The notes under the pieces: generated by a model
The model's database searches: none
The model's input: the letters and a program-made list of their open reading frames with translations, nothing else
What the model was told of the DNA's origin: nothing
In this document: positions 2-54,407 of the stretch, one piece after another
Layout: each line of letters begins with the position of its first letter
Position numbering within the stretch: position 1 is the first letter of the stretch
Translations under genes and position numbers: made by a program
Assembly (NCBI GenBank): GCA_010015585.1
Contig: ML975176.1
Reading direction: 5' to 3' (one strand)
DNA from: Eremomyces bilateralis CBS 781.70
Lineage: Eukaryota
Length of the DNA stretch: 64,000 bases

Positions 2-1627
2 AACGGCTCGCCAACGCCGGAACGAATTCCGAAGACTATAATCTTTATAGACTCCCGACGTGATATCCAAAAATGTGCGGAATGTCTGCGAGGCTGGCTA
101 CAGAAACTCTCAGCTGGGGCCGTCGGGGCCCACGACTGCAAGCAGATTATCCAGGTCTACCATTCACACACCACTCCAAACGACAAGAATGCTATATACG
201 ACCAGTTTTCCAAAGCGGACTCTAAGATCCGAATTATGGTGGCCACAGAATCATTAGGAACGGGGGTAGATCTCTCGGATGTCACACGAGTTGTCCAATA
301 CGGCTTCCCTCTGGAACGACTCTTATGCGTCCTTATCCAACGATTTGGCCGTGCAGCTAGGATGGCTGGCATTAAAGGAGAGGCCATCTTCTTGGTGGAA
401 AGTTGGGCGATAGGTGACAGGATCTTATCGACAAGACCGGCGCTTCTATCCAGAACTCAGACGCCGTCGTGTTTAAGACGGCCTTCCAACACGAGCCGGT
501 TAGCTCAGTCGTACTCTGCTGATCCAGGAGTGGGCGGTGACATCCTAGATGATGAATCGGATATTGCCGTAGACGCCATTAAATATGATATACCAGGAGA
601 GCAGCACCGACGCAAAACGGAGAGAGAACGCCGAACAGACCTACACGATGACTGTCCGGCGCTATTCAATCTTGTTAATCGATCCGCATGCCTACGCCGA
701 ATCCTAATGGATTGGCTACAAGAGAGTCTATCGGATCCAGCATCTAGGTTACCGGCTCCTGAACCGCAGGAGTGCTGTAATGTCTGTAACCCAGATCTGG
801 CGCGGGCGGTACCTTTCCCATGGGATACCACAACTGGTCTTCGTAAGCCCCAGACTGGAACGGCATCCGGCGCATTTTATGACCGCCTGACCCTCTGGGG
901 AGATAACGTTGTGAATTCGGCACATCGGATGATGAAGCCAGAACTCTCAGCACGGTTATTCGCGCCGAAGGAAGAGTGGATATCAATATCGAGAGAGTAT
1001 ACGAACATCCGCTCGGCTGCTGAGTTGGAGAAGTTTACGAAATCGGCTTGGATGAAAGACCATTCCCATGAGCTGTTCGAAGAGTTCAATAAAATCAAGT
1101 CCTATGTAGTGAGGAACTGGCCCGGACGCTATACACCAGGAACCGCAGCGGCAGCTCAAGTTCTAATACGAAGGGCGCCATTCGAACACGCTCATCCCAC
1201 AGTCGAACAGCAAGTATCTCAACACAGAGGTCGGAAGAGAAGATTGTCTATAGAAGCAGAGACTCTGATAACTCCTGATCAGGAACGAAGAGTATTACTC
1301 GCGCGTGAGCGAGAAGAGTACGTTTCCTCGCTAGAGCGGATCATTGCTCAGGCAAGGGAGGTGTCAGCCTCGTGCTCTTCCCATCTACCTACCCTACCAA
1401 TGACCATAGTATCAGCGAACTCGTCATTTACATCTATGGGTAGGTTGATGACATCTACAAACGTAGATTATTCTTCTGCTAGGTCAGGTGTTCTCGAAGA
1501 CGGCGAGAATGAGGTATCAGGTGTAATTGATGGTAATCGGGCCTTGAAACGTCCCATATTAACCCGGGGGGGGGAAGTAGAAACGAAACGGGTCGTCCTC
1601 GGCGTTCTAGACTCTAACGCAAGGTGA
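2..1627 (+). CDS. RecQ-like superfamily 2 helicase, C-terminal part (5'-truncated by window edge); transposon-encoded
   Basis: The frame is open from base 2 and reads PKTIIFIDS (motif IV), VYHS, IRIMVATESLGTGVD (motif V), VVQYG and QRFGRAAR (motif VI), then a RecQ-type Zn module C(LRR)...CCNVC. Confidence 0.85.
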   Translation, partial: NGSPTPERIPKTIIFIDSRRDIQKCAECLRGWLQKLSAGAVGAHDCKQIIQVYHSHTTPNDKNAIYDQFSKADSKIRIMVATESLGTGVDLSDVTRVVQYGFPLERLLCVLIQRFGRAARMAGIKGEAIFLVESWAIGDRILSTRPALLSRTQTPSCLRRPSNTSRLAQSYSADPGVGGDILDDESDIAVDAIKYDIPGEQHRRKTERERRTDLHDDCPALFNLVNRSACLRRILMDWLQESLSDPASRLPAPEPQECCNVCNPDLARAVPFPWDTTTGLRKPQTGTASGAFYDRLTLWGDNVVNSAHRMMKPELSARLFAPKEEWISISREYTNIRSAAELEKFTKSAWMKDHSHELFEEFNKIKSYVVRNWPGRYTPGTAAAAQVLIRRAPFEHAHPTVEQQVSQHRGRKRRLSIEAETLITPDQERRVLLAREREEYVSSLERIIAQAREVSASCSSHLPTLPMTIVSANSSFTSMGRLMTSTNVDYSSARSGVLEDGENEVSGVIDGNRALKRPILTRGGEVETKRVVLGVLDSNAR

Positions 1628-1727: not shown

Positions 1728-4420
1728 CATGGGCTACATCTCTGTCTGCCAAGGGCTGGCGACGTCTGTTAGCACGAGACTAGAAACTCCATGAGCATGC
1801 GCATACCAATATCGCCATCGTGTCGCTATTAGGATCTAAATCAGCCGTGGCTCCTCTCCTCTCATAAGGTGGTACGACTATTCGATCTTCATCTCTTATG
1901 ACCTTTGCATTAAACACCTCCAATTTTTGAGTTGCTACTCTTCCGAGCCCGATCGTATGTATGTCTGGTGCTTGATGTCTTGCCTCCCTGCCGCCGTCAT
2001 AAAATTTAATCGAGTCGCATGCCAGCTCAAAGGCTAATGTATGAATATCATCCATCGCGGAGGGCACAGAATGTGTGGAGTTGCCCTTCCGGGCGAATGC
2101 GTCCTCTACTGCCCTGCGTAGACAAACAGTATATTCTGCCGTTAATGAGGTAGTCTTGAACAGAGCATCCAATCCGAAAGTCGACGTTCGACGGGCCCAA
2201 AGCTCTCTTTTCAGCTCCAGGTTCAGATATTCAAGGCTACGATCGACTTCTTGCCAGGTGTCCCGACAGCCATGCGGGTTAACGAGGCTATTCGAGAGTA
2301 TTGCGCGCCGAAGCTCCTTGTCACAAGCTTTGGTGCTAGTGAGCCGCTTTAGATAGAGCATTTCGAATGCGTAGTTTGATTGTCCAGTCCCCTCGAAGTA
2401 AAAGCAACAGACACCAATGACTCGGTCGATGAGTCCTATATCTCCGTTTTTGATGCCGTACTTCAAGGTCTTGTACACAACCATTTGTTGAAGGTATCGA
2501 GCATGACTAAGGAACTCCTCATCGACTGTATTGTTGGTATGCTTCTCCTTCGATGGTCGCCAGGCTTCCGGCTCAAATGCGGATCTGCGAACATCCTCCA
2601 CCAGTTCCATGAACCCTCTAGTATCCATGTTCCGAATTGCCTTGTCAACCCCCTCTTGATCGGAGATATCGATGCCGTACTGCTCGAGGTGAGTATAAAG
2701 TAGTCCAACAACTCGAGCGTCGAAACTGTGAAGCACTAGCTCTTCTAGAACCTGAAAAGCTGCACGGTCCGCTGGAATATTCTTTCGTCCCCAGAAGTTG
2801 ATGTTGTGATAGAGAGTTGAAGCGTCCTGTTGCTCCATGTTTCCGTAATGTGTCTTTTGCATGAGCCATAGAAAATTCATACGCAGGTGAAAGAGAGCAG
2901 CGACTCCTATCAGCCAGTCTTTTCTATCATACGCCATAGACGCGTCGACTTGCTCAGCCTGCATAGATCGGATAAGTGAAGAGGTTTTTTGATCGCCAAA
3001 CGCCAAGAACAGACGGTTGTCGAATTCTTTATTATCTAGTTGGAATTGGTGCTTGTAGATGCTCTCTATAACCTCGTAGGAGCCATCTAGAGTACCTTCG
3101 TTGAAGAGAATCGGACCGAGCGTCTTGCTGTCTGTCTTTCGAAGCTCGAGTAACTCGACTGTTGGCATAGCGGGGTAAGGTATACCGGACGTAGAGAAGA
3201 TAGATTTGATCGCGAGTGGATATACCGATCGAATTGCCTCCGCTATAAAGTAGGTATCAATCTTGGCGGCGGTCTCGTCATATACTGCTGCACCAGGAGA
3301 GTATAGAAGATCCTCTATTGTAAGTGGAACCTCGCGGTGCAGCATTGACTGCTTTAAACCACCAGAGGGGATATCGGCGCCTCTGAAAACCTTTCCCGTT
3401 GTCACAGAGCGCATTTCTGCGTGATTTGAAATGAGCTGGTGCTTAATACCTTCTCGATAGTCGAAATTGTCATACACAACACAGGCATCTAGTTGCTGAC
3501 CATATCGACGGACCGTTCCCTAGTTGCAATCAGTCGACGTCTATGCTGAGAGGCGGTGAAGATGCCTTTGCTTGTTCTGCCACGGTTTCGAGATGTCTGT
3601 GGACTCCCTTGTAGCCTTCACAAACCCCAAACTGGTGAAGAAGATCGAGGATACGCCGTTTCACGCCATTTGAGTGCAGAAAGGCACCAAATACGCGGGG
3701 AAACTTGTTGCTCCCTTCCGACGCCCGAGAATAGCAGAGAATCGACGTGATTATCGCAATCCTGTGGTTGAATTTGACAGGGTCCCGTAGTGATCGATCT
3801 TTTCTCTCTCTCTTGGGCGCCATGATGCCATTAAGCAATCCACATAGAAGAGGAGCATGAGTGTTAACTTGCTCGTACATCTGCCCAAACTGCATATCGC
3901 CCAGTATACGCTCGTAGTCCTCGACTTTCTGTCCCTCTGGCTCTTTCTCCCTTCCCATGCCGGCAGGTGAAGTTCTCTCTTGGACACGGTCGACTTGGTA
4001 GGCACTAAACATACCTCCGGCTTCTTCCAGTGCCTTCATTTCCTTCCTCAGACCCTTTACAGTGACAATTCCTGTCGCACCAGACGCGGGGTGTTCTTGC
4101 AGCGCGTCTAAGACCTCTGGTTGACCGTAGACGGCCTCGGCGAGCCGTTTGGCACGCGTGGCAGGGCGCTCTCCATAACCACCAGACCCTTGAGTCGTCG
4201 CGTAGACATGGATAAATTCTCGTAATGTAATTTTTTTTTTCCGCATGAATTGGCATATCTCGTTTACTCTCTGCGCTTTACTGCGTCTTTGAGACCTTCT
4301 TACTTTCTGACGAGGTGCATTAGATGTGTTTGAAGCAGCAATATGCCGAGGACTTGGAGCGGGAGGCAAGATGGGCGGGTTCAACCGCGCACTCTGACGA
4401 CGCTGGTTTTGGGCCGACAT
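1728..4420 (-). CDS. Academ-type (DUF6589-like) DDE transposase, spliced
   Basis: ATG 4420 (MSAQNQRRQSARLNP). Exon 1 joins in frame across a 46-nt intron (3565-3520) to GTVRRYGQQLDACVVYDNFD. Motifs YDNFD, GDQKT, LFHLRMN, G.SNYAFEML, N.LVN..G and D..LEYLN are present. A probable last intron (gtatgc...gctaacag, 1806-1766) leads to TGA near 1728; unspliced, the stop is at 1780. Confidence 0.8.
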
Positions 4421-4570
4421 GGCCCAAAATTCAATCAATTATGGAAAAAGCCCAGAGGAATCGAATGGATGTATTCAATTGATGATGCACCATGTGGTTG
4501 TGGATAAAAATGGAGTTAAAGATGGTCTTCTATTTGGCATGAAAGTTCACGGCACACGCCGAAATAGGTG

Positions 4571-4680
4571 GACAGAATCCTCAGGCTATTTGTTCGAGGA
4601 GCACATGTGACTTACCGATTAGGTATAGTCCGCTCCGGTGCCTTGGCACGACCACAAATAGCCTGAGCTTGCTGAGGTAA
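4571..4680. repeat. Terminal repeat (TIR) of the Academ element, with internal inverted repeats
   Basis: Perfect 14-bp arms ctcaggctatttgt (4580-4593) / acaaatagcctgag (4654-4667). Inner stems ggagc/gctcc, gacttacc/ggtatagtc and gtgcc-tt-ggcac. Homologous copies at 30636-30741 (inverted), 31228-31333 and 31334-31431. Confidence 0.85.
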
Positions 4681-4807
4681 TGTCAACCAGTACCATTCAG
4701 TCATCTCCTCTACCACGTGATTCAATTCCGCTGTCCCTTGTTGTTTCCTCCACTAGATACACTGATACTGTAATAGTCTGTACTCTGTACTCCGTAAGAT
4801 TGTCCTA

Positions 4808-7444
4808 CTACCGTTTCCTATTTCCAGGCACATTCAACCTAAATCGCTCTCTATCCTCACCCTGTCCCTCGCCGCTATCGTGACTTCCATCCACCACTCC
4901 TGCATCCGACTGCCCACCCTGTCCTTGCTGTGGCTGCGCTCGTCGAGTCGCACGCAGTCGTGCATCTTCTTCAGCATCCCGTTCGTCCTCGCTCTTTTCT
5001 TCCGTGACTATGATTCCACTGCTGTGATTACTGCCTTGCCGATTGTGGCTCGACCGGCTACTTCCAGATTGTCTCGGTCGGAACATACTTCGACGCACTT
5101 GTTCGGCAGCTTCCGGCTCGGCCTCTGGCATACTCGAAGTGTGGAGTTCGCCCACTGCCCCGGGCTGAGTCTCCGCGCGACGCTCGATGTCAACTAGATC
5201 CGCCTCATACTTCCCAGTCCGCCGAACCTGGATTTCGGGGAGCCATCGGCGCAACAACGAGTTCTTTGTCCGTTGCCAGACACCGCCACCCCCGGCGTCA
5301 GGGCGGTAGGCGGGAGCCATGACAGTCCGTTTCGGCGCAAACCATCGCACGATCAGTTTCCATTTGATCTTGCTCAACAGCCCCTCAGGCTCAACGGCAT
5401 CGACTCGCGCCCCGGTACGGGACCAGAGATCCGGGTGTTCGGAAGCAATATCATGGTAAAGGTTCTCGTATGTCCCACGACGGATGGGTACACGCACAGT
5501 CGCTGGACTATGCTTGAAGACGTACACGATGATGAAGAGAATGAGCAGCATAGGAAAACTGGAGATGAAATACCACTTGATCGATGGATTGTCCTCAAAC
5601 GTGTCGACGTTCATCCCAAAAAATCCCACGACAAATGTCAAGGGGAGAAAGATGAAGGTAATCCAGGACAATCGCCAAAGCGAGGCATTTAGCTGGAGGG
5701 AGAACCGTGCGTCCCGGATCTCGACGCTCTTGTACATCTTCGGCGCGTTAGTCGTGTATCTGCATCCATTGAGAAAGGGAACTTACCAAGTCACTGAGAT
5801 TTTGCGTCGGCTTTACCAGATCCTCTTGCACCCAATTCGCCAGCTTGTCAAAGCTATCCGGCACGGTCTCAATGAAACTTTGCTTCGAGAGCATGTCATC
5901 CGCAAGTTCCTTCAATTCCCCCTTCAATTCTTTGATCACATCGATATGAATGTACATGAGCTTCTCCACTTTGAGCCAGATGCTCGCATTGGTCCACAAC
6001 TCCGGAGCGCGCGATTCATCTGCCGGATTCTCATAGATCTTGTCTTCCAAGATCGAAACATGGGTCTCACATTTGGTCAGAAAATGGTCCCAGTTGTTGT
6101 TTAGCGATTTGAATATATCGTTCAAGATTAGATCCATGCATTCGAGGGTCAGAGTCTGATCGCTCAGGGTCGGATCGTCTGACAGATCCTCTCGCGGCAG
6201 AAAGAAGGTTAACCCGCTCCAGGCGGATTCGATCTCCTGTCGCGCCCCGATTAGGGTTTCCTCGCAAGACCCCGACTGTGAACCTTCGAAGATGATGATC
6301 ACCGAGCCATTGTCGAGTCGGTTGATGTCCGGAAAGTAATCCTCGTCGCCGTAGGGCCCAAGCCGAGGACGCCGTCCCTCCGCATCGCGGGCTTTCGCAT
6401 CCTCCCTCGGCGTTGAATACGGGCTCTCCATATCTTCGGCGTTCAGCGCCATGGACTCGCCTTCGTTCCGCTGAATGTACACCGACAGCCGCTGCACATA
6501 CACATTGTACCCGTAATCCGGATTCTCATCCGGGCCGTACGCGTTCAGCTCCAGCATCTTGAAGTCGTCGGCCGCCCCCCCGTGGAATCGATTGGCCGGC
6601 ACCGGACGGAGATAATCCAGACCAAAGGCACAACGGGAGATCCCTCGCCAGGGATCCCGTTGGATCCGAAACGTCTTCCCATTCAGCAACGGCTTGCCCG
6701 CCCGCCGTTGCGGTCGTTCAAACTCCGCCCACTTGCCAAACGCCGTCCCAACGAGGTCATCGCGGTGGTTGATGTTGAACTTCCGAAGGAGGTATCGCCG
6801 CGCCCAGACCGCGTTCTGCACGTGGATGATGCGTAGGATCAACCCCGGCTGATCTTTCTGTCTGTCGGCGTCCGCGTAGAACTCCTGAAGCTTAGACAGC
6901 TCATGGAACTCTTGCGCCACGATCTTGCGACGGCCGGTGGACGTGTATCTCGCACTGATGAAATCGATCACCAGAACGCGCCCGTCCTTCCAGCTGTCCG
7001 CGGTCCATTCTTTCTTCCATTTCGGGCTCGGCTTCGGTTTGTGTTTCCGGTAACGGGCCTTTCGGCCTCGTGGCACGCCGTTGCGTCCGTTCTCGGTGGG
7101 AAGAAAATCATCAAAGGCAGGGCCTACATTTGGCGCGTCAGACACGATTACATTCTTTCAAAACGGAGGATCCAATGGGTGGTATGCAGATCCCATGGTC
7201 ATAAAGCGGCCCAGTGGAGCGAGCCACGCGTCTTCATGAGCATCAACCGCGCGGTCCGGGAAAACCATACAGCACGGCGCATACCGGGCGAAGCCGCTCG
7301 CAGGACTAAACCCGTCGAAGCCGGCGAAGGGGAATAGTTCCACTCACTCTTTGGTTCCGGGTCCTGTTCCCCATCAGTTAGATCCTGTACCGTGATGGGC
7401 GGCGCAGAGAAGGCTCTTCGAATCCCATCCATCGAGCGGCTCAT
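4808..7444 (-). CDS. CorA-like Mg2+ transporter family protein (multi-exon; in-frame TGA at 7158-7160 in the most likely model)
   Basis: C-terminal exon has LSWITFIFLPLTFVVGFFGMN (CorA GMN motif) plus a second TM helix. An intron joins ORF 5748-7145 to ORF 4808-5737. The 5' exon 7444-7285 splices in frame via intron 7284-7232. Confidence 0.75.
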
Positions 7445-8467: not shown

Positions 8468-10755
8468 TTACTCAAAACTGCTGGCAACGTCGGCCCTCGC
8501 AGCTAGTTTGGCCTGGTAATCCCGAATGTCGGCCCACCTCCGAAGGTCGGATTCATCGCCGTTCGAAGCATCCGAGGCGCCGCTGTCGGGTCCCATTCGT
8601 TCTAGGCGCGACATCAGGTCGACAAGCGGTAAGAGCGTTTGGTCGCGTAAAGCGGCGAAGGATTTGGAATTCGACGACGAATTCAATAGAAGCGAGGCCA
8701 CCTGTCGCACTTTCATGCTCTGCAGACTTGATTAGTAGATTTTACCGGGCAGATGGCGAGTCGATGACTTACAAAGCTGATGGAATTGGGCTCCATGTGG
8801 ACTCTGCTGACACTTTTCACCATAGTCAGGAGACCTTGGATGATGCTTTCCCTCTCTTGGGTCATATCCTCTTCCGATATCTTGATAACTGCCTCTGGTG
8901 AAGAGACATTTCGCTCGAAGCTGGTGTTGCTAATGGGCGGAGCGTTGCCTCCTTCAGCGGACTTGCCAGGATCTCCTTTGCCATTGATGGTTTGGGCCAT
9001 TCCCGAGTATCGGTCGACGATGTAGACACGAGTACTTAACTGACTGGCATAGATGTTCGCCTTTTGAATCTCGTACTGAATCTTGCGTCGGTCGAGGATT
9101 TCGCCGCCGGAAGTACCTGTGAGAGCTGCGCCGGCGATTGCTTGGGTCGCGCTACTATACCCAGACGGCGCCTCCCAAAATGGCAGGCCGAACGGTACAT
9201 GCTGATTGTACGGTGACCAAACCTTCAGCTCCGGGGGGAGCTCGTTGATGGCGTCGTGGCAGTTGCGTAGTCCCGCCTCAAGGGCCTTCTTCCGCAGTTG
9301 ACCTTGCGTGGATGAAAGGACGCCCGATGAGTAGTCGACGGCTAAGATCCCATCGACGCTCTGGTAGATGCGGACATTGGCGTTGAATCCGGTGAGAAAG
9401 GAGACTACATTGGCAGGCTGGTTCTCGATATTGTCTGGATGGAGAAACTCGTCATCCACCTCCACTGGCTTGGGCGGATAAGTGAAGGTTGGAGTCTCAG
9501 GAAGGATGATAATTGGTCCGTCCCTTGTGAAGATGTCCATTGTTCTGAGAGAGATTAGCCGACGCGTAAAACCACAACGGTCGAATCCAATGAACTGTAC
9601 ATACCTGATACTCACGAACACTGTCCAGAATATCCTCCTTCCGATTTCCTGAGTCACAAGATCAGGAGATGAGCGTCCCCCGTCGGAACTCTGATCATCT
9701 GACCGCTGCCTGGACTCCGAACGATGGAGCCCAAGGAGCCGCAGGATGGTCAAGCATTCTGAGAGAGAGAGGATGGTCTGCACCGATCGAAAAGTATATG
9801 CATGGGTAAGTCCGATGAAGTAGCTTGTCGCTGCATCGTTCACGTTGATATCTTCCTTGTCAACGTAATTGAAACCCCGAGAATCCGAACAGACCTCCAA
9901 GCAACGTTGAATCAGATGCGAGTGCGTGGGAAAGAGATCACCTTGGTTAAAGGCATTCAACTCTTCCCGCACTTTTCGAGGGAACGATGCGGTCAAGATG
10001 GCAACCATCGAAGCGAGAAGCGCCAGGAAGGGGGGGTTGCGGTAGTCCTCTCCACTATCGAATTGGGCCCGGAACGTCGGTCGATGCGGGAAAGGACAGA
10101 GAGGGTGAATATAGGTGAAAAAGTCGTCAACCAGGCGAGAGACAATCTCCCGGGAACAGATAGACTCGACGCCTATTGTTGAAGGCGATTTCAGAGCGGT
10201 GAGCGCATGAGCCATCTGGGTTGGAGACGACGCTCCAGACTGTCCGACGAGCTCCCCTTCTCCGGTGAGTTTGGTCCGCTTCCTCCTCTCTGCCACTCGA
10301 TTTGGAGGGCCTCGACGCTTGCTGGGCCGATCGAAAGTACACTCGATCCCTAACCGCTGGCATGGCTCACATGGCAAGGTGTCCGAGCAGCGAACCTTTC
10401 GTTCTCCACATGCATCACAAGCTTTTCGCAGGCGGTGCTGCTTCTGACTGTCCTGCGTCTGGCCGGGGACCGAAGCTGGTCCAGCGGCGGGGACAACCTG
10501 AGGGGGACCGTGGATGCCGACGTGGCCGAGGGCAGGATCATGTTCGCTGTGCTGCGCCGGTTGCACGACACTCCGCAGTTGCTCGGCCAAGGTCAAGGCC
10601 TCGTTGTGCTCGGCGGAATTGGGTCCCACGTACGGACCGGAGTCGTGCCGCAGCGATGGACTGACGGGCTGCGTGGAGGTTGATGATGGGTAGATGGGAT
10701 GATTTGGATGATAATGCTGCTGGTCGGGTGGCGGCGGGGGCGGGTATTGAGGCAT
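8468..10755 (-). CDS. Zn(II)2Cys6 fungal transcription factor with fungal-specific TF middle domain
   Basis: ACDACGERKVRCSDTLPCEPCQRLGIECTF binuclear cluster, FFTYIHPLCPFPH and EIGRRIFW motifs. Introns near 9600 and 8770; the last exon is ORF 8468-8716. Confidence 0.9.
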
Positions 10756-12034
10756 CGCGGCGATGCTGCGCCTGCTCTCTAGGTCCTCCTTGTAAGTCCA
10801 TGCTCGTTTCCGACGATTGTATGATTACTTGCTGCGCTCACCTATCCTCGATCTGCAGTGTTCCCTGGCCCGTAAATGATGGATGTAGGCCGAAGATCTA
10901 GCGGGCGGCGCGTCGCGTCAACTGTCTCACCGTTCTACCACCGGGATTATTGGACAGGAGGCACTATGTGAGTACCAAACTCCCTGTCGTCACTTGCTGT
11001 CGAAATCGGAACTCTACGATTCGGATCGAGTGCTCTGTGATAATTGAAAGCGAGACAGCAGAATTTTCACCTTAGACTTTCCATCTGTGACATTCACCTG
11101 CCTGAGATGATGGTGATTATTGAATATCCACGTGACAATGGGCCCTTCATCATCCGGCTCTACCTCGGTAGATTGGAAGGCATCCGTGGTCTCCATTGGC
11201 TAATGATGGGTGACGCCACACAGTCTGGGGAAGTAATTAGCAGCGGCACGGAAGTGGAGCTCCCCCAGAGCCCAGCGACTGTTTCTTGAGTCTTAACTCC
11301 CTGGTTGCGAGAGTGGCATTTCATCATTCACAGGGCTGGATTATGGGTACACCAGGAATTCAGGATATTCCGGTTTGGGGAAGAGCAATTGAAGGAAATG
11401 AAGCGAACTCCCGTCATCAACATCCTGTCCTACCTTGTTCTCATCAATCTTGGAGCAATAGAGTATTGGACAGAGTAGAGTACTGCAAAGTTGCCCAATT
11501 TAAAGACCGAAACAAACGACTATACTGAGGGGTTGGATTGATGCTGCAGGAAACATCTCTCAATCCCTTCCTTCATAAAGATACCGAAACTCTCATAAGG
11601 ACTGACTTGGTTACAAAGAATATGAGAAAGGAGTGGCTTTGATGTTACCGGTCCTGGTAACCGGGTTCACAAGACTCTCTGGTGCAAGGACGAATAGATA
11701 CGTGTTAGATGGTAAATAATTGGTCTGCCGAGATGGGACCCATGCTCTCGCATCAATTAGATGGCCGCTAATTGACCACCCTAACCACGTCGCAGACTGG
11801 CTAATAGCAATACTCCCTTCATCGAGTGAACCGAGGGGCTGCCTACTGCTATATAGGCGCTCCATAAAGTACATTAAATGCAATGTCGGGTATCGCATCC
11901 AGATACCCGGCATCCACTTAAATGTTTAACGCAATCTAGAAACCAATTCCTCGTTGCGTATATCAGACCTTCTCCTCGTCCCCTCGCTGTGCTTGACGCT
12001 CCTGTTTCAACGTTCCAGGTACCATTCAATCAAT

Positions 12035-12556
12035 ATGCGAGTCCGACTATTTTCATTGCTGAGCACGCTCAGTGCCCTCACCTGTGCACAGTGTGCAGAG
12101 CCAGCCCAGAATACCACAGCCCAGAATACCACCACCATGCCGCGTACTCAACCCGTCCTAGGCGCCGTTGGAATCGCCGTCTCCAACCTGAATGTCTCGA
12201 TGGACTTTTACACGAAAGTGCTTCCCTTCGTCGACACCGGTGTCTCGTACGATCTCCCCCAATTCCTCGAGAAGGTGGTTGCCCTCCCGGCCCCGAACTC
12301 CGGAAGCTCCGTCGTCCTGATGCAATGGAAAACCCCACGGAACACGACCAACATTCCCGTCAAACTGGCCCTCTATGTCGAGGACGTCCACGAGTCCATG
12401 GAAAAGGTTCGGGCATACGGAAACGAGATCCTCTTGGAGGCGGGATCGGGCCGCATCGGGACTGTTTCGCTTCCTACTGGCATGGCCCGAGACCCGGATG
12501 GCTATATCTTGGAATTCAATCCGCTCTCTATTCTTTCCCCAAAGCAGGCTCTTTGA
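12035..12556 (+). CDS. Secreted glyoxalase/bleomycin-resistance (VOC) family protein
   Basis: ATG 12035 with signal-peptide-like MRVRLFSLLSTLSALTCAQC. VOC motifs VGIAVSNL..SMDFYT and ARDPDGYILEF. Intronless. Confidence 0.8.
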   Translation: MRVRLFSLLSTLSALTCAQCAEPAQNTTAQNTTTMPRTQPVLGAVGIAVSNLNVSMDFYTKVLPFVDTGVSYDLPQFLEKVVALPAPNSGSSVVLMQWKTPRNTTNIPVKLALYVEDVHESMEKVRAYGNEILLEAGSGRIGTVSLPTGMARDPDGYILEFNPLSILSPKQAL

Positions 12557-13126
12557 GTGTCGACGCGATGATTGGGGATCTGTGGAGCTGTTAGTGGATG
12601 AGGGATGGTATATGTTCATGGAACTCAAGGAATATCAAAGAATCTAGTTCGGAGGAACAAAAGTCAAAAGACATGTTAGCATAATTCAGCGGCTACTTAA
12701 TTAGTCATATGGTTGTGAGAAGCTGCATATCGATTGGGCGCGTTTTGAGTTGACAATAGACTTTTCGATCCTCTGTGATAGACGCTGTTGGCTTCTGAAC
12801 GAATCGACCGAGTCCAATTATTGACCGTGAAGACAATAATAACGTATATATACACTGGAATGGAAGCAAGTGCTTCGTTACGGAAATTTTTATTAAAGTC
12901 TCGATGAACAGGAGGACGAGAAGTTCCATTACAGTCGTCCACTTTCTGTAATATCCATAAAATATCCAAATGGTGGGGGCGTGAGGCTCACGAGGTCCAG
13001 GTACGTACCCACCCGGATCTTGCCGAGCCATCCAGCTTCCATATGCCATCAACTTCCAAAGACCAATTGTAAAATACCTTACGATCAATTCCGTATCCTC
13101 AAGGTTTGGGTGAAGTTGGCGGTGCA

Positions 13127-14921
13127 ATGCTGCTATGCGCAAATCATGTCACTCGCCAATTGATCTTGCGGCCCTCCTATTCCGGCGCTCGTGCCTGGGT
13201 TTCGCGTCGCCGTGATGTCCGACGCCATTACAGCGAATCCAATGGTCCTAACATCGCCATCCTAGGTGGGGGGATAACAGGTTTATCGACGGCGTTCTAC
13301 CTTCGAGAAGCTCTGCCGAGCTCGAAGATCACAATATATGAGGGCTCGGACCGTGTGGGTGGCTGGATTCGGTCAACTGCAAAGGGTATTGGATCGGGCG
13401 ATGTCATATTTGAACACGGTCCACGGACTCTCAGGCCCACGATTGGGCTATTGACTCCTCATCTCGTTCGTCTCCCCGCTGTATGGTACCTTCCGCTCTC
13501 TGACCTAGAAAGATCGAGGACTTAGGTCTGGCCCAAGATGTCATTGCGACTCGACGAGATGCTCCCGCCTCAACGAATCGGTACATCTACTATCCGGATC
13601 ATCTGGTACGAATGCCGATGCCACAAGCAGGAGAAGGGATCTCTCAAGTATGGAACGAACCCTTGTTCGAAGGGATCGGCTCCGCTCTGACCGAATGGTT
13701 TGTGTCCACTCGACCATCCAATTTGCAGGACGAGTCCGTCGCGTCGTTCATCTCAAGACGATTGGACAGGAGAATGGCGGACAACATGGTTTCTGCCCTT
13801 CTCCATGGCATATACGCAGGCGATGTAAATCAGTTGAGCATGAAGAGTATATTCCCACTCCTATGGTACTATGAGGGCCGATACGGAAGTTTGGTTGGAT
13901 CAATACCCAGTGTATGGTCGAACTTACGGTCCGGCATGATGCTTGGCTCTGCGCGAGAGTACCAGTCAATCCTTGATCGTCAGAGAAAGCCTCTGGGGTC
14001 GACATTGAAAGAGAAACTTTCCCGGGCAAGTGTATATACGTTGAAGCGTGGGCTTACGGGTCTCGTTTCTGCCCTGAGAGAGCGATTGTTAAGTCGAGGC
14101 GTGACCATCCATGAGAATACGCCTATCTCAGCACTTTCTATGGATAGTGCAACGGAGAAGATTGAAGTGAGTTGGTTTCATCCACCCTTGGTATCCGCTA
14201 ATAGTATCAGATCACCTCCGCTGGAAAGTCCTTACCACAAGCCGACCAGGTCATCTCCACGGTATTTTCCCGCCATCTTGCGAACATCTGCAAGGATGGC
14301 TCCGGGACCACGCTTTTGCCATCCTTCGGCGAAACGCACGCGGTTTCGGTCATGGTGGTCAATCTCTTCTTCCAGGAATCCGACTTGGGGATGCCTGAAG
14401 GCTTTGGATACTTGATCCCCCAAAGCATTCCGATCGATCAAAACCCCGAGCGCGCTTTAGGCGTGATTTTCGACTCCTGTGCGACGTCGGGCCAGGATTC
14501 GGTTTCCGGAACTAAGCTCACGGTTATACTGGGGGGGCATTGGTGGGATGGTTGGACGGAATTCCCGGATGAGGAAGAGGGGGTGTCGATGGCTCGAGCG
14601 ATATTGTCTCGGCACCTGGGGCTAAATGCGACGCCAACAGCCACCCAGGCGACCCTGCAGCGAGAATGTATTCCACAATACTTGGTGGGGCACTGGTCGA
14701 GGATGGAAAAGGGACACCAGGAGCTGAAGCAGCACTTCAAGGGCAAACTCAAGGTTGCCGGAAGCTCGTACACGGGGGTGGGGGTGAACGATTGCATCCA
14801 GTCGGCGCGGAACCTGGTCGTCGATGCGGATGAGCTCGCTTGGAAGGATAAAACAGGCCTAGAAGAGTTTACGGGGGATTTGAGGTTTGCAGAGGTGTAT
14901 TTTAGGACGAGAGGCGAATAA
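13127..14921 (+). CDS. HEM14: Protoporphyrinogen oxidase
   Basis: Mitochondrial-type leader, IAILGGGITGL FAD motif, RVGGWI, FEHGPRTLRP, GIYAGD..QLS, GFGYLIP, CIPQY.VGH and GVGVNDCI. Two short introns. Confidence 0.93.
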
Positions 14922-15298
14922 TTTCTCGCATGGAACCTGATTGTTCTGTCTCCGTACCCGTAACCAAACGGAGTTGAAGTTTACATTCCTTGTAATCCGC
15001 ACAGTACACCGACATGTATCATTTAACATGGAGCAGTGTATTGGAACTTTCAGGTTCAGTTGTACATGTGGTTCGATACAGGCAATCTGATAGAAGCACG
15101 ACTAGAATGAAGTGTAGGGGTCTAGGGGATCTGCGGACCCACTAAAATTTCTGTAATACCTCCAGTCTGGACGACGTGAATAAACTTTCAGCATGAGCGT
15201 TGCTAAGGACGTCTACTCCCTACTTCTGCTTGAAACCATTTACTTGATCCTCCCGGAGCAGAATAGTCGCATCCTACATAAGAGAGGAACTATCGAAA

Positions 15299-18380: not shown

Positions 18381-18533
18381 CCGGATTAACCTGGACGGAT
18401 ATTTAGGTTGGTACTGGAACGGACACTGGATTGATAGGAAACCCCACGTCGGGGTGCCGGGAGCGAAAGGATAATTCAAAACATGGTCGACACCTATCTA
18501 CCCGTACATTGTCTAGTCTGTTCCTAGTGATTA

Positions 18534-20345
18534 AGTTCGAACCCCTGCCTGTTGGCCAACCACCTACTTGGCCAGTATCACCATCTTAGCCACCATCATG
18601 AAAACCGTGACATCTCTACCACCACGTAATTATATTGAAAATTCAAACCATAGGACTATTGTACAGCATCTTGGGGAGCGTCTGGTATAGTTTCAGCCAC
18701 GGGAATACTCTGTTCTAGTATAGTATTTGCCTCCAGAAGCCGTACAGCCTCTTGCGCTACTTTGATCTCTTTAATCTGTGCGAACTTAACATTGGGATCT
18801 ATCCGAACCTTCTTCTTGCGTTTTGGGGCTGAGGCGGCATCTAGACGGGCCTGGAGACTCGCAATTTTCAGATCTGATGCAGCCTGACGCGCCTGTAGCA
18901 CTCCGATTGCCTTGGCTGCCTTCCCTATGTAGGCCTTCGTCCACTTCGTCACGCGTGTGTTCTTGCTAAGAACGCGCAATGCACTTTGTATTTGTTTGGG
19001 CTTGTAGGGCGTCGTCTGGAGGACCGAGGCGACTAGTATTGGGGTGCGTGGAGGCGTGTTTGGTCGTGGAATTGAGGATGCGGTTTCGGTATGCGTGGGC
19101 GGTACCACGAACCGGTTATTGAGACCTTTTGACGGGTCCCACGGTATAAGACCTGCAGCCTTCCACCCTGATCTGATTGTACGGTCAATTAGGCGTGCCC
19201 GACGCGCCTCAGCATAGAGGACAATGAATCTTCGTCGTTTAATCGGTAGCGCCTCGTCGATATACGCGCTTTGGCGGAGGAGGGCCTTGTAGAAGCGTTT
19301 CAGAGGTGAAAAACAGGCGAGATCGAGAGGCTGAAGGATGTGGGAGGTATGCGCAGGTAGGAAGACCACAATCACGTCATTTATCCTGCATTCGTATAGG
19401 AAATCGACGGTTGCGTGGCTTCCGTGCCCGTCCATGAGTAGGATCCTGTACCGTCGCTCTGTAGCGGTTTCAGGGAGGAAAACTGTACGAAGCCACACCA
19501 ACGCGTGTTGATCTGAAGTCCAGCCGTTTGGTGATACCGCATAATGGAAGTCTGGAGGTTGTTCAGGGAACCAAGCAGCTTGTAGGGACGCGCCTTTCTG
19601 GATAATGGTTGGTTTGATATAGCGACCGGTCGCAGAGACTGATTCTATGATAGAACACCATTCCCGGTTCTCAGGACTCGTGATATAAGCTGTCGACTTC
19701 TGCGAGTCTGCGATGACAGTAGAATTAGCACATATTCCCATTCCAACACCGACTTCATCCATATTCCATGTATCGGAAGGGTGGACATCGTACTGTGTCT
19801 GAACTTGGTGAAAATACGCGTAAAACCCATTGATTGTATCCTGGGTTGCAGCCTGACGTCGTACGACATCTAGACTATGCCCAACACACGTCGCAACGCG
19901 TGGATTTCGATGTAGAAATCGTGGTATCCAATTCTTCCCAAGGGGTGTAGAATCACCCTGAAGCTCTAGAACTCGCGCGGCCATTTCACGCAGACGTGCG
20001 TGGGTAGGGGGGAATCCTTGAGCGTCACTCTCAAGTATCCAGTCGACTAAAAACCTCTCTTGCACCGGTGTAAGGCGTTGGTTCGATTGTTGAGCTGTAG
20101 AGCGCGATTGCATGCCCTTGAGGCGGTTTTGAAGCGTAGCTCGATTGACCTTGAATAGGGCCGCAGCTTCATTTTGTGATTTGCATTGACCGGTCTCTAC
20201 GGCATGGATAGCCTGTAGGAGTACCTCCTCTGAATTTGACATCGTAATACGATATGGTGGTTGAGATATTACGCGTTTGGTGATGGTGGTGAAGATGGTG
20301 ATACTGGCCAAGTAGGTGGTTGGCCAACAGGCAGGGGTTCGAACT
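18534..20345 (-). mobile_element. Intact Fot1/pogo-like (Tc1/mariner superfamily) DNA transposon, 1812 bp
   Basis: Perfect 54-bp TIRs (18534-18587 / 20292-20345, agttcgaacccctgcc...) flanked by TA on both sides (18532-18533, 20346-20347), with a full transposase ORF inside. Confidence 0.95.
18656..20242 (-). CDS. Pogo/Fot1 transposase (HTH + CENP-B HTH + DDE_1, DD35D)
   Basis: ATG 20242 (MSNSEEVLLQAI). HTH, WIPRFLHR, WNMDEVG, LLMDGHGSH and HTSHILQPLD motifs, with 35 residues between the 2nd and 3rd Asp. Confidence 0.95.
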   Translation of the reverse strand: MSNSEEVLLQAIHAVETGQCKSQNEAAALFKVNRATLQNRLKGMQSRSTAQQSNQRLTPVQERFLVDWILESDAQGFPPTHARLREMAARVLELQGDSTPLGKNWIPRFLHRNPRVATCVGHSLDVVRRQAATQDTINGFYAYFHQVQTQYDVHPSDTWNMDEVGVGMGICANSTVIADSQKSTAYITSPENREWCSIIESVSATGRYIKPTIIQKGASLQAAWFPEQPPDFHYAVSPNGWTSDQHALVWLRTVFLPETATERRYRILLMDGHGSHATVDFLYECRINDVIVVFLPAHTSHILQPLDLACFSPLKRFYKALLRQSAYIDEALPIKRRRFIVLYAEARRARLIDRTIRSGWKAAGLIPWDPSKGLNNRFVVPPTHTETASSIPRPNTPPRTPILVASVLQTTPYKPKQIQSALRVLSKNTRVTKWTKAYIGKAAKAIGVLQARQAASDLKIASLQARLDAASAPKRKKKVRIDPNVKFAQIKEIKVAQEAVRLLEANTILEQSIPVAETIPDAPQDAVQ

Positions 20346-20380
20346 TAAACGCCAAAAAAATGCTGCAAATGTTGTCTTAA

Positions 20381-29659: not shown

Positions 29660-30635
29660 TGCGTATGCAAAAACACCTATCTAATACTTCCGCTAGAAAG
29701 CACTGAAATATCCGAAGCCGGCTCAAGGAGGAAAATATAGGTAGAAGGTTCCAGATAGAAATGCACACAGGCTTTGAACGCGTTTGTAGAGGCACTTAAA
29801 GCATCAAGCCAATATTCCGACGTCGAAAACAGGTCCTAGCGATAGTAGCGAAAATGTACCGGTGTACGCGGTTCGGAGTTTGCTCATATCCCTTCTGGCC
29901 TCCTCTCCTCTTCTCTCATCCCCCGCTGACCTCGCAGCAAATGAGTGAAGGGATGTATCGCAACCGGGCTCATGGACTCCGTCGATATGGTAATATTCCA
30001 GGGCCGCAAGGTAGTCAGACGATGACGTGTTCGCGGTCGTCGAATTCATGCAAGGAGTATGCTGGGAGTAGGAATTCGGATAGCGGAAGTCGTAAATAAC
30101 GAGGACTGAGTAGTAGATCGGGGGATTATTATTATAATAAGGGTCGAGGTATCAAGAAACGAACTCAACACCAAAAATCCAAAACAAAAGAGCTGAGGCT
30201 GTGACAGCCAAAGTCGAAGAGAAATTCGTTGGCGAGGCTTACATCCTATTAAGAGGTACGTACATCGCCAATTCGCCATTCCCCGGCCCAGCCTGGCTGT
30301 TAGCCTGTTACTTATACATAATGAGTGGACACGGAGGATGGAGGCTTGGAGGATTATTGAATACATTTCAGTGGCTGATCCATACGTCCACAAGCGTGTT
30401 GCCCCTGGACCCCGCCCGCATGCACAGGACTTTCTGAGATCAGGATCGGCAATCGGACGCGAATCATGCGATCGGCCATTGGCCGGATTAGTTCGGGAAA
30501 GTTCAGGAAAATCGGGGAATCCGGAATAAATGCCTGTTCGAAAGTCGAAACGATAGCTGGAACTTGTAGAGTAAGGAGGAGGATAGAAGCGGTTTGTGGA
30601 ACAGTCACGTGGTCAAGCTGAGGAGTTCAATTGCC

Positions 30636-31333
30636 TTACATTAGCACGCTCAGGCCATTGTGGTAGTGCCTGAGGCAACTAACCGCACTATACCAGACCT
30701 AATTAGCAAGGTTCTCTACCAAGTAGCCTGAGGATCATGTCATTGATTTTTGGCCCAAGTCGAGATCGTTTGTATGAGAGCAATTTAACTACTTCAACTT
30801 CGTTTTTCTCCACAACGAGCCGTCGCACAGTAAAATTGATACGTTCAATCGAATCCTCTATCGTTTCTTGACAGCCCAGTGAAATTTAGGCGATGTCAGA
30901 TCGAACCTCCTCTCGGCGCAGCGTACGACTGGACCCAACGTCTCCCGAGAGCAGAGAATAGCTACGAACTGGTGCTTCGACTGTGGTGGTTGGTTGACGA
31001 TTCTGACGCAGTCTGGTTTTTTACATATCAGCGTTTTTTGCAAGACACAAGCATCCGAAGTGGAAAAAAATTCAATTTCTAGATGAAGTATACCTTGCTG
31101 CACAGTCCAGTGAATTTAAGGGCAAATATAAGAAGTCCTCGTATTGTTATTGAAGAATATGCAAAAGTGAGGTTTCCAAAATCGTGCAAAACACATGTAA
31201 ATTATCGAACAGTCAGTGTGAACCATTGACAGAATCCTCAGGCTATTTGTTCGAGAACTGCATTGACCGATTAGGTATAGTGTGATTTGTTGCCTCAGGC
31301 ACGACCACAAATAGCCTGAGCTTGCTGAGGTAA
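30636..31333. mobile_element. Non-autonomous (MITE-like) derivative of the Academ family
   Basis: Imperfect ~105-bp inverted termini (30636-30741 vs 31228-31333) homologous to 4571-4680. The internal remnant ATG at 30893 (MSDRTSSRRSVRLDP) resembles the transposase start, at a matching distance from the end. Confidence 0.75.
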
Positions 31334-31431
31334 GCCATTTGTTCGAGGAGTGCATGTGACTCTACCGATTAGGTATAGTCCACTCCGGTGCCTTGGCACG
31401 ACCACAAATGGCCTGAGCTTTGCTGAGGTAA
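31334..31431. repeat. Additional, 5'-truncated Academ terminal copy in direct tandem with the MITE end
   Basis: Differs from 4585-4680 by only 5 substitutions and 2 single-base insertions, and ends ...gctgaggtaa. Confidence 0.85.
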
Positions 31432-32517
31432 GAGTCAATAGAATAGAAGGAGGTAATCACGTGGTAAGGGCGCAACCTGAATGACCTGAATCATCCAGCA
31501 GCAGATCTAAAGAGATCAAGAGAGATATCTGAGGAAGGACTAAGGAAAAAGGTCAATGTGCGACACTATTGGTAAGGGAATATTTCGTACTACCGATGGT
31601 GGGGATACGGATATATTATACTTTATTATATCCTGTAGAAACAGAATCCGGGTGACTGACGGCTGCCCAAGTACGTCGAATCCTCCGTACAAACATGAAC
31701 TGATGTTTGAGGCTTCTCATTGTCCACTGAAATCCAGACCTGTCTCTCTGATCTGCTGTACAGATAATCAGCCCAAGCTTGCTAGGTCCTTACTCCGTGT
31801 AAGGTACTAAATTCAACATTGGAGTATCAGGGAGGTCAAGTGAATGGAATTTACCACGTAAATATTAGGGAATTGGAAGTGAAGTTATGTACAATTCACC
31901 TCTCCCACTATTCCTCTCTATGCCTCATGACTACTCCGTACACCACCGCAGTCCGCAGTGCAGTATACTAGTGCAGGAACAAGACGTCTTCCAGCTTCTT
32001 ATTCTCATTCTAATTCCCGGATGATTATATCTTTCTTACCCGTAACTGTCACAAGTCAACAAACACCATAAAGTCATCGAGTCCAAAGTATTATTATGAT
32101 AAATAATTATGACCAGACCGGGACGGACCCTCACATTTCTGCCCCAGGTCCCCACACAGACATTACCATAGCACCTCCACAGCACCAGCTCACCTCTCAC
32201 TCGCTGTGTCTGCTCCATCGTCTCACTCCCCGTTCATCTTAGGTCTAGTTCTGTAGTTCTCTAGGTCTCCATCACGACTTCACCTCACCTTAACCCCATC
32301 GACAACAGAATTGCGCCCGCAGTTTCTCCGACAACACGAATCTTGACCAGATCCGATTAACCCTTCTGCTGATCCCGCCGCCCGCAGCCTCTTCCCGCCC
32401 GCTGCTGCGACTGCTTGCCATGCCGATGTCGTGACGTGCAGTTCTCCGCATATCGACATCACCTCCGCCCTCATCCTATTTCCTTCGCATGGCCGCCTCC
32501 CCATCCATTCACCCGTC

Positions 32518-53040: not shown

Positions 53041-54094
53041 CGTGGCGTTTACGCCAGGCACGAGAGTTCTGAATAGATCAAAATGCCTGGGAGGATGCCT
53101 CCTCAGATGTCCTCCGGATAGTATTTCCACGGTTGGGTCGCTGATGAGATATACTCCGATATCTCCATCGTCGCAGAGACCGACTCTACGTTCCCTTGAG
53201 CTCTTTTTAAGGTTCTGATCAAATCTGAGTCACGCGGAACCGTGGAATCACCCCTGGACTGCAATACGACCATAGCCCAAAGGTGAGAATACGTAGTATG
53301 GGGGAAACTCGGCTTCTAATCAGCCAAGATGTAAGCCTCCCGCGGATACTTTAGATCCCCGAAAAACGAAAGCTTTCTCCATTCAGCTCTCCTCCAAGCC
53401 CCAGCCATAGAGCACAGATGCAGCATGCAGTTGCCGTATTCGATCTTGGCGGGCAGATTGTCATACAGTTACAGTATCTCTCTGTCTTCGATCCCAACTT
53501 CAACACCACAACGTGTCGCCAATACCGGCGGGTGTGTGTGCAAAAGTAAGTTCGCTGAAAATTCTAATTAGGTAGCGAAGGGTAGAATCGGTGATATTAA
53601 TATTTAATACCAGAGCTTGAGTTACTATATAGACCACAAGTACTACCGTGGTCCATGGAGGAGGCGTTTCTTGGCTCGTTCGAACTTCGAACGAATGCGG
53701 CTCTGCCAAGTACCAAGTGCCAACCCATGGGTCGTGACCCACTTCTCCCGTTATTCCCAGAATGGAATAATAGCAGCTTACATAGTACGTCCATGTCATG
53801 ATACGTTCGTACCCCTACCGTGCCTGTTGGCCAACCACCTACTTGGCCAACCACCTACTTGGCCAGTATCACCATCTTCACCACCATCACCAAACGCGTA
53901 ATTAATATCTCAACCACCATATCATATTACGATGTCAATTCAGAGGAGATACTCCTACAGGCCATTAATGCCTTACAGACCGGTCAATGCAAATCACAAA
54001 ACGAAGCTGCGGCCCTATTCAACGTCAATCGAGCTACGCTTCAAAACCGCCTCGAGGGCATGTAATCGCGCTCTACAGCTCAACAATCGAACCA

Positions 54095-54407
54095 TGTAAC
54101 GAGTCAAACTGCACGCCTTTCGGATTGATACCTTTGGGAGAAGATATTGGTGGCCTTGTGGACTGCCGATAGATGAAGTATGTCGTCTAACCGTTGACAG
54201 TACACGCGAGGTTACTCCAGGGAGTCGAGCACTATGTAGGACGGATTTCTCTCCTCTTTCTCTTCTTCCTTTCCTTCTTCTTTTCCTTCTTCTTTTCCTT
54301 CTTCTTTTCCTTCTTCTTTTCCTTCTTCTTCATCTTTCGTTTGGTCCGATACTAGCTAGAATACAATAGCCATGTTCTAAAAGGCTCCCCTTCTACGCAT
54401 CATGACA
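54095..54407. mobile_element. Probable solo LTR (313 bp) inserted in the degenerate pogo element
   Basis: Non-pogo sequence with termini TGTAACGA...TCATGACA (TG...CA, imperfect short inverted repeat). No TSD (aacca vs tctag). Confidence 0.65.
54271..54330 (+). repeat. Perfect tandem repeat (TTCCTTCTTCTT)x5 in a polypyrimidine tract
   Basis: Five exact 12-bp units read directly from the sequence. Confidence 0.95.

Follow-up and report, generated by a model that had tools for sequence, protein, structure and literature searches.

The Element and Its Proteins

The left edge of the window, i.e., of the whole 64-kb stretch of DNA analyzed here, is occupied by a fungal DNA transposon of the cut-and-paste type with a length of about 6.3 kb, and positions 4571-4680 are the outermost 110 bp or so of this element. 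The transposase gene is located on the minus strand and reads inward. Its first, exon-like frame (3530..4438, 302 aa) starts 242 nt from the terminus, and the second frame (1780..3519, 579 aa) carries the DUF6589 domain (Pfam PF20231, E 1.7e-65) with a DDE-transposase-like fold. The plus strand encodes, at 2..1627 and in convergent orientation to the transposase gene, the C-terminal part (541 aa) of a RecQ-like SF2 helicase (Helicase_C, E 2.4e-14); the start of this gene and the helicase-side end of the element lie to the left of the window.

The original prediction had assigned a RecQ-like helicase to the element, and this assignment holds. Apart from the Helicase_C domain in the window, a full-length homologue of 957 aa, encoded by the related element L002, matches WRN, RECQ1, and RecQ at E ~1e-17. 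The helicase contains both DEAD and Helicase_C domains, such that an SF2 helicase is present beside the transposase. In the two whole elements found elsewhere (L002 and L005, see below), the helicase gene is located inside the element and is likewise convergent with the transposase gene.

The 302-aa frame is 57-72% identical to the N-termini of five close DUF6589 proteins and 27-31% identical to two distant ones, and the model of these N-terminal 302 aa reaches a pLDDT of only 54. The DUF6589 part was modeled at a pLDDT of 85. Its structural matches are the P element transposase (Z 9.9, 282 residues aligned), Hermes (Z 8.9), and Tn5 (Z 8.8), followed by RAG1 (Z 6.7) and Transib (Z 4.9), at a sequence identity of 7-11%; Foldseek alone returned weak Hermes matches (E 0.016). 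Acidic residues that are invariant or nearly so in the transposase include D176, D333, E335, D360, and E386.

Several further observations concern the element and its surroundings. The gene content of the window is fungal and includes a Cyr1-type adenylate cyclase, COG6, and a Zn2Cys6 factor. Proteins annotated in ascomycetes of different classes share 84-90% identity with the transposase (Eremomyces bilateralis, Stachybotrys elegans, Fusarium solani, F. duplospermum, F. floridanum, Metarhizium anisopliae, and Dactylonectria macrodidyma), and from these identities the element seems to have spread horizontally. In one of the Metarhizium entries (P0016, 970 aa), DUF6589 is linked to a Piwi domain, which reflects either a fusion or an annotation artefact. 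A 9-bp hairpin, TTTTGGGCC...GGCCCAAAA, is located at 4404-4432 with the start codon of the transposase in its loop (fold z -3.5 for 4340-4449), and in its place relatives carry TTTTTGGGCC farther upstream. A separate element of about 1.8 kb is present in two inverted copies some 35 kb apart (18531-20348 and 53818-55457), which are 86-100% alike over matching pieces and 86-94% over long ones; this element is bounded by terminal inverted repeats of its own, whose arms of 94 nt are located at 18531-18624 and 20255-20348, and includes an open frame of 562 aa (18656-20344).

The Terminal Module and Its Fold

The terminal module (4571..4680, plus strand), as delimited by its fold and by homologous ends, constitutes the transposase-side end of the autonomous element and runs with its 5' side from the inside to the 3' terminus. 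The outer stem (4580-4593/4654-4667) is lengthened by 4594-4596/4649-4651, such that in total 4580-4596 faces 4649-4667. It encloses a middle stem (4598-4602/4632-4636), an inner hairpin (4609-4616/4622-4630), and a small hairpin at about 4639-4648. The 3' tail (4668-4680) is unpaired, its last bases being CTGAGGTAA.

Public-run contigs aligned on 3900-4900 show that the terminus reads ...GCTGAGGTAA at 4680 and that the repeated part stops exactly there. Several contigs from four public runs diverge from the window directly past 4680 or 4681, which confirms the claim that 4571-4680 is a transposon end. The summed contig depth rises from about 2200 within the element to 9000-15000 across the module (15239 at 4648-4681) and amounts to 165.6 past 4681, where one 13.9-kb contig covers the flank; it does not equal copy number and serves only to distinguish the repeated module from the non-repeated flank. 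One of the four runs (X4, organism B) gave no contig on 4682-4900.

With DNA parameters, the module folds at -24 kcal/mol, compared to -11.3 +/- 2.4 kcal/mol for shuffled sequences (z -5.39), and none of 200 shuffles is as good. With RNA parameters, the fold has -43.7 kcal/mol (z -4.60). As a background, 146 windows of 110 nt over the 64-kb stretch were scored against mononucleotide shuffles, whereby four revealed z < -3 and not a single one z < -4.5. Both folds and their coordinates agree with the nested hairpin of outer stem, inner stem, and small hairpin that had been postulated from the letters alone. An Rfam search of the whole 64-kb window gave no match at the gathering score.

Read outward, the terminus CTGAG|GTAA (4671-4685, and all other termini) looks like a 5' splice site, and TTACCTCAG at the termini, read inward, looks like a 3' splice site. 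Furthermore, the terminal motif is a direct repeat of the GCCTGAG of the stem, so that the 5' arm is able to pair with either copy.

Other Copies in the Window

The window contains an internal-deletion derivative of approximately 700 bp (30636-31333, MITE-like), whose initial 350 bp correspond to the transposase side of L005 (71%) and whose positions 362-608 correspond to the helicase side (72.5%). Its left end is a decayed module of the transposase-side type on the minus strand (30636..30745), which ends with TGTAA, folds poorly (z -0.65), and has non-Watson-Crick cells at 9 of 31 positions. The helicase-side end of the derivative is a full terminal module on the plus strand (31229..31333, fold z -3.33). 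In tandem behind it follows a 5'-truncated module (31334..31431, plus strand, fold z -3.69) whose outer 5' arm is shorter by the initial 5 nt; this is the second copy on which the original prediction was built.

The truncated copy aligns with 4585-4680 over 98 nt at 93% identity, with five substitutions and two one-base insertions. The five substitutions named in the prediction are exactly those observed (T4587>C31336, C4602>T31351, A4603>G31352, G4632>A31382, and A4660>G31410), and the two insertions (gactCtacc and gagcTttgc) had been overlooked. Four of these substitutions had been interpreted as two compensatory pairs (T4587-A4660 and C4602-G4632). They are real, but as evidence they are weak when standing alone, for all five changes are transitions at CpG or CpA/TpG sites, and sister copies are mismatched at the same places. 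Relatives show that both cited pairs were ancestrally C-G, with each arm in CpG or CpA/TpG context; in a palindrome, this hot context is the same on the two arms. In the inner-stem columns 38/74 and 39/73 (4602-4603/4631-4632), the copy at 31229-31333 has T.G and G.T and the module at 4571-4680 has A.C; at the outer pair 23/113 (T4587-A4660), the copy at 30636-30745 has T.G. The chance of two both-side pairs among five random substitutions is P = 6e-4 under a uniform model, and P = 7e-3 if only CpG and CpA/TpG sites are mutable. As evidence for conserved pairing, the two cited pairs are thus suggestive rather than decisive.

Related Ends and Their Common Design

Metagenome contigs were scanned in a protein-guided manner with the first transposase exon, which yielded 10 loci, in which eight termini were readable. 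Altogether, 12 additional family ends and one doubtful one were collected, from metagenome contigs as well as from a contaminated bacterial bin. Two of the loci, L002 and L005, represent complete elements of about 6.3 kb; here the transposase gene and the gene of a helicase of about 950 aa lie at opposite ends, and both read inward. L008 is a 1.5-kb derivative with both ends present. L110 (G001:C89, a 16-kb fungal-looking contig), a derivative of approximately 700 bp that also retains both ends, was found by a pattern scan of prokaryote genome bins, and L111 (G001:C201) is a second contig with a decayed end. The contigs of L110 and L111 are filed in a bacterial metagenome bin, yet carry a fungal transposon family; this bin seems to contain eukaryotic contigs.

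The fold is a common property of these ends. A z-score of -3.3 or lower was obtained for 13 of 16 ends, comprising three in the window (-5.39, -3.33, and -3.69), eight metagenome ends (-3.39 to -7.29), and both ends of L110 (-5.20 and -3.76). The three that do not fold are the decayed copy at 30636 in the window, the likewise decayed L111 (z -0.05), and L112, a doubtful member. Counting the additional ends only, 10 of 12 fold, with z from -3.4 to -7.3.

All intact ends follow the same order from the inside to the terminus: CTCAGGC, a stem extension, a loop, the complementary extension, GCCTGAG, 3-6 nt, and CTGAGGTAA. The stem base CTCAGGC...GCCTGAG (7 bp) is invariant, and a third copy of the heptamer (CTGAGG) is located at the terminus of all intact ends. 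The unpaired 3' tail measures 12-14 nt, and the loop of about 45-60 nt contains conserved sequence motifs that are able to form side hairpins. Inverted modules ending in CTGAGGTAA are present at both ends of L002, L005, L008, the derivative in the window, and the L110 derivative, whose far end reads CTGAGGTTG.

Pattern scans contributed little beyond these loci. A search of metagenome DNA with a pattern of 26 specified bases returned no stretch, the pattern probably being too stringent to recover relatives of about 85% similarity. The scan of genome contigs gave 91 loci, and 96 matches were screened over L011 and up, including the viral ones; among these 96, only L093 (identical to L110) is a clear family end. 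Five loci from viral contigs were dismissed as chance matches, none of them with the 5' arm. In L067/L112, the terminal motif is present and CACGTG is located at +27, but a hairpin is lacking (z -0.19); this locus is not counted as a family member.

Conservation of Pairing

The alignment of nine ends of the transposase-side type (A3) reveals 89.5% paired cells, compared to 85.1 +/- 0.9% in shuffled alignments, none of 500 reaching the observed value. Nine of 35 pairs are changed on both sides, compared to 4.6 +/- 1.4 in the shuffles (1 of 500). When the partners were slid by one to three columns as a control, 24-40% of the cells were paired and zero to six pairs were changed on both sides. The compensations in A3 include transversions, namely G-C to C-G at 37/75, C-G to A-T at 31/93, and G-C to T-A at 32/92, and a stem of L110 was also compensated by transversion (TGGTCG/CGACCA to TGCTCG/CGAGCA). 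In the second alignment (A5), composed of three helicase-side ends, 95.5% of the cells are paired and 7 of 22 pairs are changed on both sides, compared to 2.3 +/- 1.2 in shuffles (0 of 500). These tests cover a small sample of 9 + 3 aligned ends that are kin by descent, such that relatedness alone can beat the shuffle control, and the structure underlying them came from one aligned row.

The helicase-side ends of L002 and L005 illustrate how the parts of the module evolve. Between these two, identity is 19/30 in the variable stem, 44/46 in the loop, 14/14 in the stem base, and 13/22 in the adjoining flank. Together with the pairing of the helicase-side ends, these identities mean that, at the level of sequence comparison, the stem changes roughly as fast as unconstrained DNA and nevertheless remains paired, and that the loop is kept as sequence. 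Along the same line, stem extensions and loops differ between the two ends of one element in L002, L005, and L008, and each is self-complementary. The innermost hairpin behaves differently: none of its eight pairs in A3 is compensated, four vary on one side only, and in two the only departures are unpaired cells. The 3' half of this hairpin, CGATTAGGTATAGTC, is plain conserved sequence.

Covariation in the 9 + 3 homologous ends exceeds the shuffled controls and, in A3, also the slid ones. The central idea of the prediction, that pairing and not only sequence is conserved, is borne out by these independent relatives and not by the two pairs on which it was founded. The stem covariation across relatives probably reflects selection for a DNA end that is able to fold, which would be recognized after unwinding.

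Alternative Explanations

Three other explanations have to be weighed against selection for a foldable DNA end. The arms might simply be inverted transposase binding sites in duplex DNA, with protein and half-sites co-evolving in each lineage and no hairpin being formed. The invariance of CTCAGGC/GCCTGAG in both arms, the repetition of one heptamer three times in stem base and tail (the third copy, CTGAGG, at the terminus of all intact ends), and the loop motifs conserved as sequence are what such sites would look like. However, it is not the heptamer that covaries but the extension beside it. In L002, L005, and L008, where one protein serves both ends, the two extensions are unlike each other, and a difference (T-A versus C-G) is also seen between the copies within one genome in the window that align at 93% over 96 columns; we therefore regard duplex sites as an unlikely explanation. 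A neutral upkeep of the palindrome would combine symmetric mutational hot spots (CpG decay and RIP-type CpA-to-TpA changes) with replication template switching between the arms. The substitutions between the window copies, all five of them hot-spot transitions, agree with it, as do seven pairs that are hot on both sides, the wobbles and mismatches in sister copies (T.G and G.T in 31229-31333, A.C in 4571-4680, T.G in 30636), and the predominance of transitions among contig variants. Yet P is 7e-3 even under the hot-spot model, several compensations are transversions and thus beyond the hot spots, the stems of the helicase-side ends differ at 11 of 30 positions and are still 95% paired, and pairing is lost in the decayed copies, which speaks against conversion in place. 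Since neither 30636 nor L111 retains the fold, pairing is not maintained passively in place, and neutral upkeep appears decidedly improbable.

Finally, the module might act as RNA structure in a transcript, e.g., in the leader of the inward-reading genes, in an outward or antisense RNA, or in a hairpin precursor of small RNAs. This would be consistent with the stable RNA fold (z -4.60), with the location of each module upstream of an inward-reading gene, with the outward-reading strand folding better than its complement in 8 of 12 ends under RNA parameters, and with the excess of G.T over A.C on the outward-reading strand (17 versus 10). The latter, however, is no clear asymmetry and not decisive; the other strand is favored in two of the 12 ends, with a tie in two more, Rfam gave no match, and an inverted repeat at both ends that reaches the exact terminus is what one would expect of a DNA recognition element. 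With DNA parameters, both strands fold equally. The RNA role that had been considered in the prediction gains little support from the count of 17 versus 10, and the absence of a clear strand preference fits DNA better than RNA; we hold an action as RNA to be quite unlikely. Selection on a foldable end, as opposed to duplex half-sites and passive upkeep, is supported by three points, namely that the covarying part differs between ends that one protein serves, that compensations include transversions, and that dead copies lose their pairing.

CACGTG Motifs outside the Termini

The hexamer CACGTG occurs at 11 sites in the 64-kb window, three of which are located 25-34 nt outside termini. One (4714..4719) lies in unique flank DNA, 34 nt outside the terminus at 4680. 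Another (30606..30611) is found at a distance of 25 nt beyond the left terminus of the derivative and within the 9-mer TCACGTGGT, and the third (31458..31463) 27 nt outside the terminus at 31431. The derivative is flanked by this 9-mer as a direct repeat (30605-30613 and 31457-31465). In the relatives, CACGTG is located at 6329 in L002, ~102-107 in L003, 6346 in L005, ~4-9 in L007, and ~154-159 and 1737 in L008.

In the first set, each of the nine flanks with at least 34 nt has exactly one CACGTG 20-49 nt outside GGTAA, seven of them at 25-34 nt; the expectation at window density is about 0.005 per 30 nt. Considering all family flanks, an exact motif is present 20-49 nt outside the terminus in 9 of 12, mostly in the form of TCACGTGA or CACGTGAC, and a T is found on the outer side of CACGTG in eight of nine flanks (read by eye). 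The L110 flanks contain one-mismatch motifs only (CTCGTG at +31 and CGCGTG at +46), and L111 contains none. The stretches between terminus and motif show no relation between copies. Both sides of an element bear the motif, and the two stretches together amount to 50 nt in the window derivative, 55 nt in L008, and ~49 nt in L005, where one side is an imperfect motif right at the terminus, at the contig end. A target duplication of about 60 bp was not detected, as the best local alignments between left and right flanks span the motif alone.

The 20-35 nt between GGTAA and CACGTG could be taken as mobile DNA, belonging either to a bipartite end or to a target duplication in which CACGTG is contained. 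We reject this for recent copies, since contigs that are identical inside the element diverge past 4680/4681 and since the stretches are unrelated between the 93%-aligned window copies.

Near-copies of the motif (CAYGTGAC or ACGTGAC) are also present in the loops of most intact transposase-side ends, where they read CATGTGAC, the L110 version being CACGTGAG. The loop of the other, helicase-side end of L110 has ACGTGAC, and the helicase-side loops of L002, L005, and L008 are free of such near-copies.

The most economical reading of the flanking CACGTG, which we put forward as a proposal, is a target preference for paired E-box-like sites. The element would land between two TCACGTG sites, each about 25-30 bp outside a terminus and with the T mostly on the outer side. 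We consider such targeting possible but rather doubtful. A DNA-binding part, be it of the transposase or of a host factor of the Cbf1-type bHLH class, might bridge the transposon end and the target. Alternatively, the unpaired loop motif might base-pair with the palindromic target in a DNA-guided manner, as in the guide/target pairing of IS608. If true, CACGTG targeting would represent a novel way of selecting sites among eukaryotic DDE transposons. In addition, the motifs next to the termini may indicate a rule of targeting that could be of use for a site-selective insertion tool in fungi.

Proposed Mechanism

Loops of about 45-60 nt are far too long for spontaneous cruciform extrusion, and folding of the end hence requires unwinding of about 100 bp. 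The obvious candidate for this task would be the element's own RecQ-like helicase. In the mechanism that we propose, the terminal ~100 bp would be unwound, most plausibly by this helicase, the unwound strands would fold back into a branched hairpin, and the transposase would recognize stem base and loop motifs together with the tail, a single strand bearing the 3' end to be joined. Whether transposition needs the end in this folded DNA form is, in our estimation, an evenly balanced question. The data presented above establish the terminus, the genes, the potential to fold, and the conserved pairing at both ends of several relatives, whereas the fold in vivo, its nature as DNA rather than RNA, and the folding by the helicase are inferred.

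In eukaryotic cut-and-paste transposons of the DDE type, recognition is thought to be directed at duplex inverted repeats, and recognition of folded single strands has so far been tied to HUH transposons, parvoviruses, and integrons. No requirement for pre-folded ends is known for DDE transposases related to P element, hAT, or RAG. Our findings bear on the question why some DDE elements (AcademH, KolobokH) carry a helicase, and they provide a testable hypothesis: the helicase would open the ends for folding, and the transposase would read the branched single-stranded structure.

Comparison with Known Systems

One close counterpart is the AcademH group of DNA transposons (Kojima 2020, Mobile DNA 11:15). 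The make-up of the element, a helicase together with a DDE transposase (DUF6589), is that of AcademH as this group is portrayed in the descriptions of citing papers. According to these, AcademH comprises fungal DNA transposons of low copy number with a helicase beside a DDE-type transposase and with terminal inverted repeats (PMC10045372, PMC10799480), and our element shares these features, the inverted repeats being present at both ends of its relatives L002, L005, and L008 and of the deletion derivative. Its target site duplication is given as 9 or 10 bp (PMC10045372). At the termini of the deletion derivative in the window, an old copy, AGTTCAATTG faces AGTCAATAG with 8 of 10 positions matching when one gap is allowed (by eye); no duplication adjoins the termini of L008 and L005, which may be recombinant or chimeric assemblies. 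In 2017, Academ was still devoid of a Pfam model (PMC5751038), and DUF6589 may be this model. Among the papers that we searched, no report was found of folded, covarying Academ ends, of a DUF6589 transposon protein, or of CACGTG-linked insertion.

The best structural matches of the DUF6589 model, i.e., P element, hAT (Hermes), Tn5, RAG1, and Transib, share with it an RNase H-like catalytic core that contains a helical insertion. Cleavage at P element ends leaves a 3' single strand of 17 nt, which may be compared with the unpaired 3' tail of 12-14 nt in our module. In contrast, sequence identity to these transposases is 7-11%, none of them is accompanied by a helicase, and none is known to use self-folding ends.

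Structure-conserved subterminal hairpins are also a property of the IS200/IS605 family (IS608) and of Helitrons, where they are recognized as folded single-stranded DNA, in Helitrons paired with a helicase. This is a likeness of possible working and not of membership: their nucleases are of the HUH type, and terminal inverted repeats and target duplications are absent, whereas our element combines a DDE-type fold with inverted repeats. Along this line, a Pfam search of the three large frames of L002 revealed no HUH (Y1/Y2) nuclease but only DEAD/Helicase_C, DUF6589, and a weak match to Cas3-like_C_2, which corresponds to the same helicase stretch.

The inverted terminal repeats of parvoviruses and AAV resemble the module in their branched, three-way terminal hairpin, in which an outer palindrome surrounds smaller ones and on which a helicase-bearing protein acts. 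They differ in belonging to a viral, linear single-stranded DNA genome with an HUH-SF3 Rep protein and rolling-hairpin replication, and there is no relation in sequence. The attC sites of integrons, too, are conserved in structure and not in sequence and are recombined as a folded single strand; however, they are bacterial, are served by a tyrosine recombinase, and clearly prefer one strand, a preference not seen here. Foldback elements and MITE hairpins, finally, are formed by pairing of the two ends of an element, whereas in the family described here each end folds on itself within 110 nt, and the autonomous element spans about 6.3 kb.
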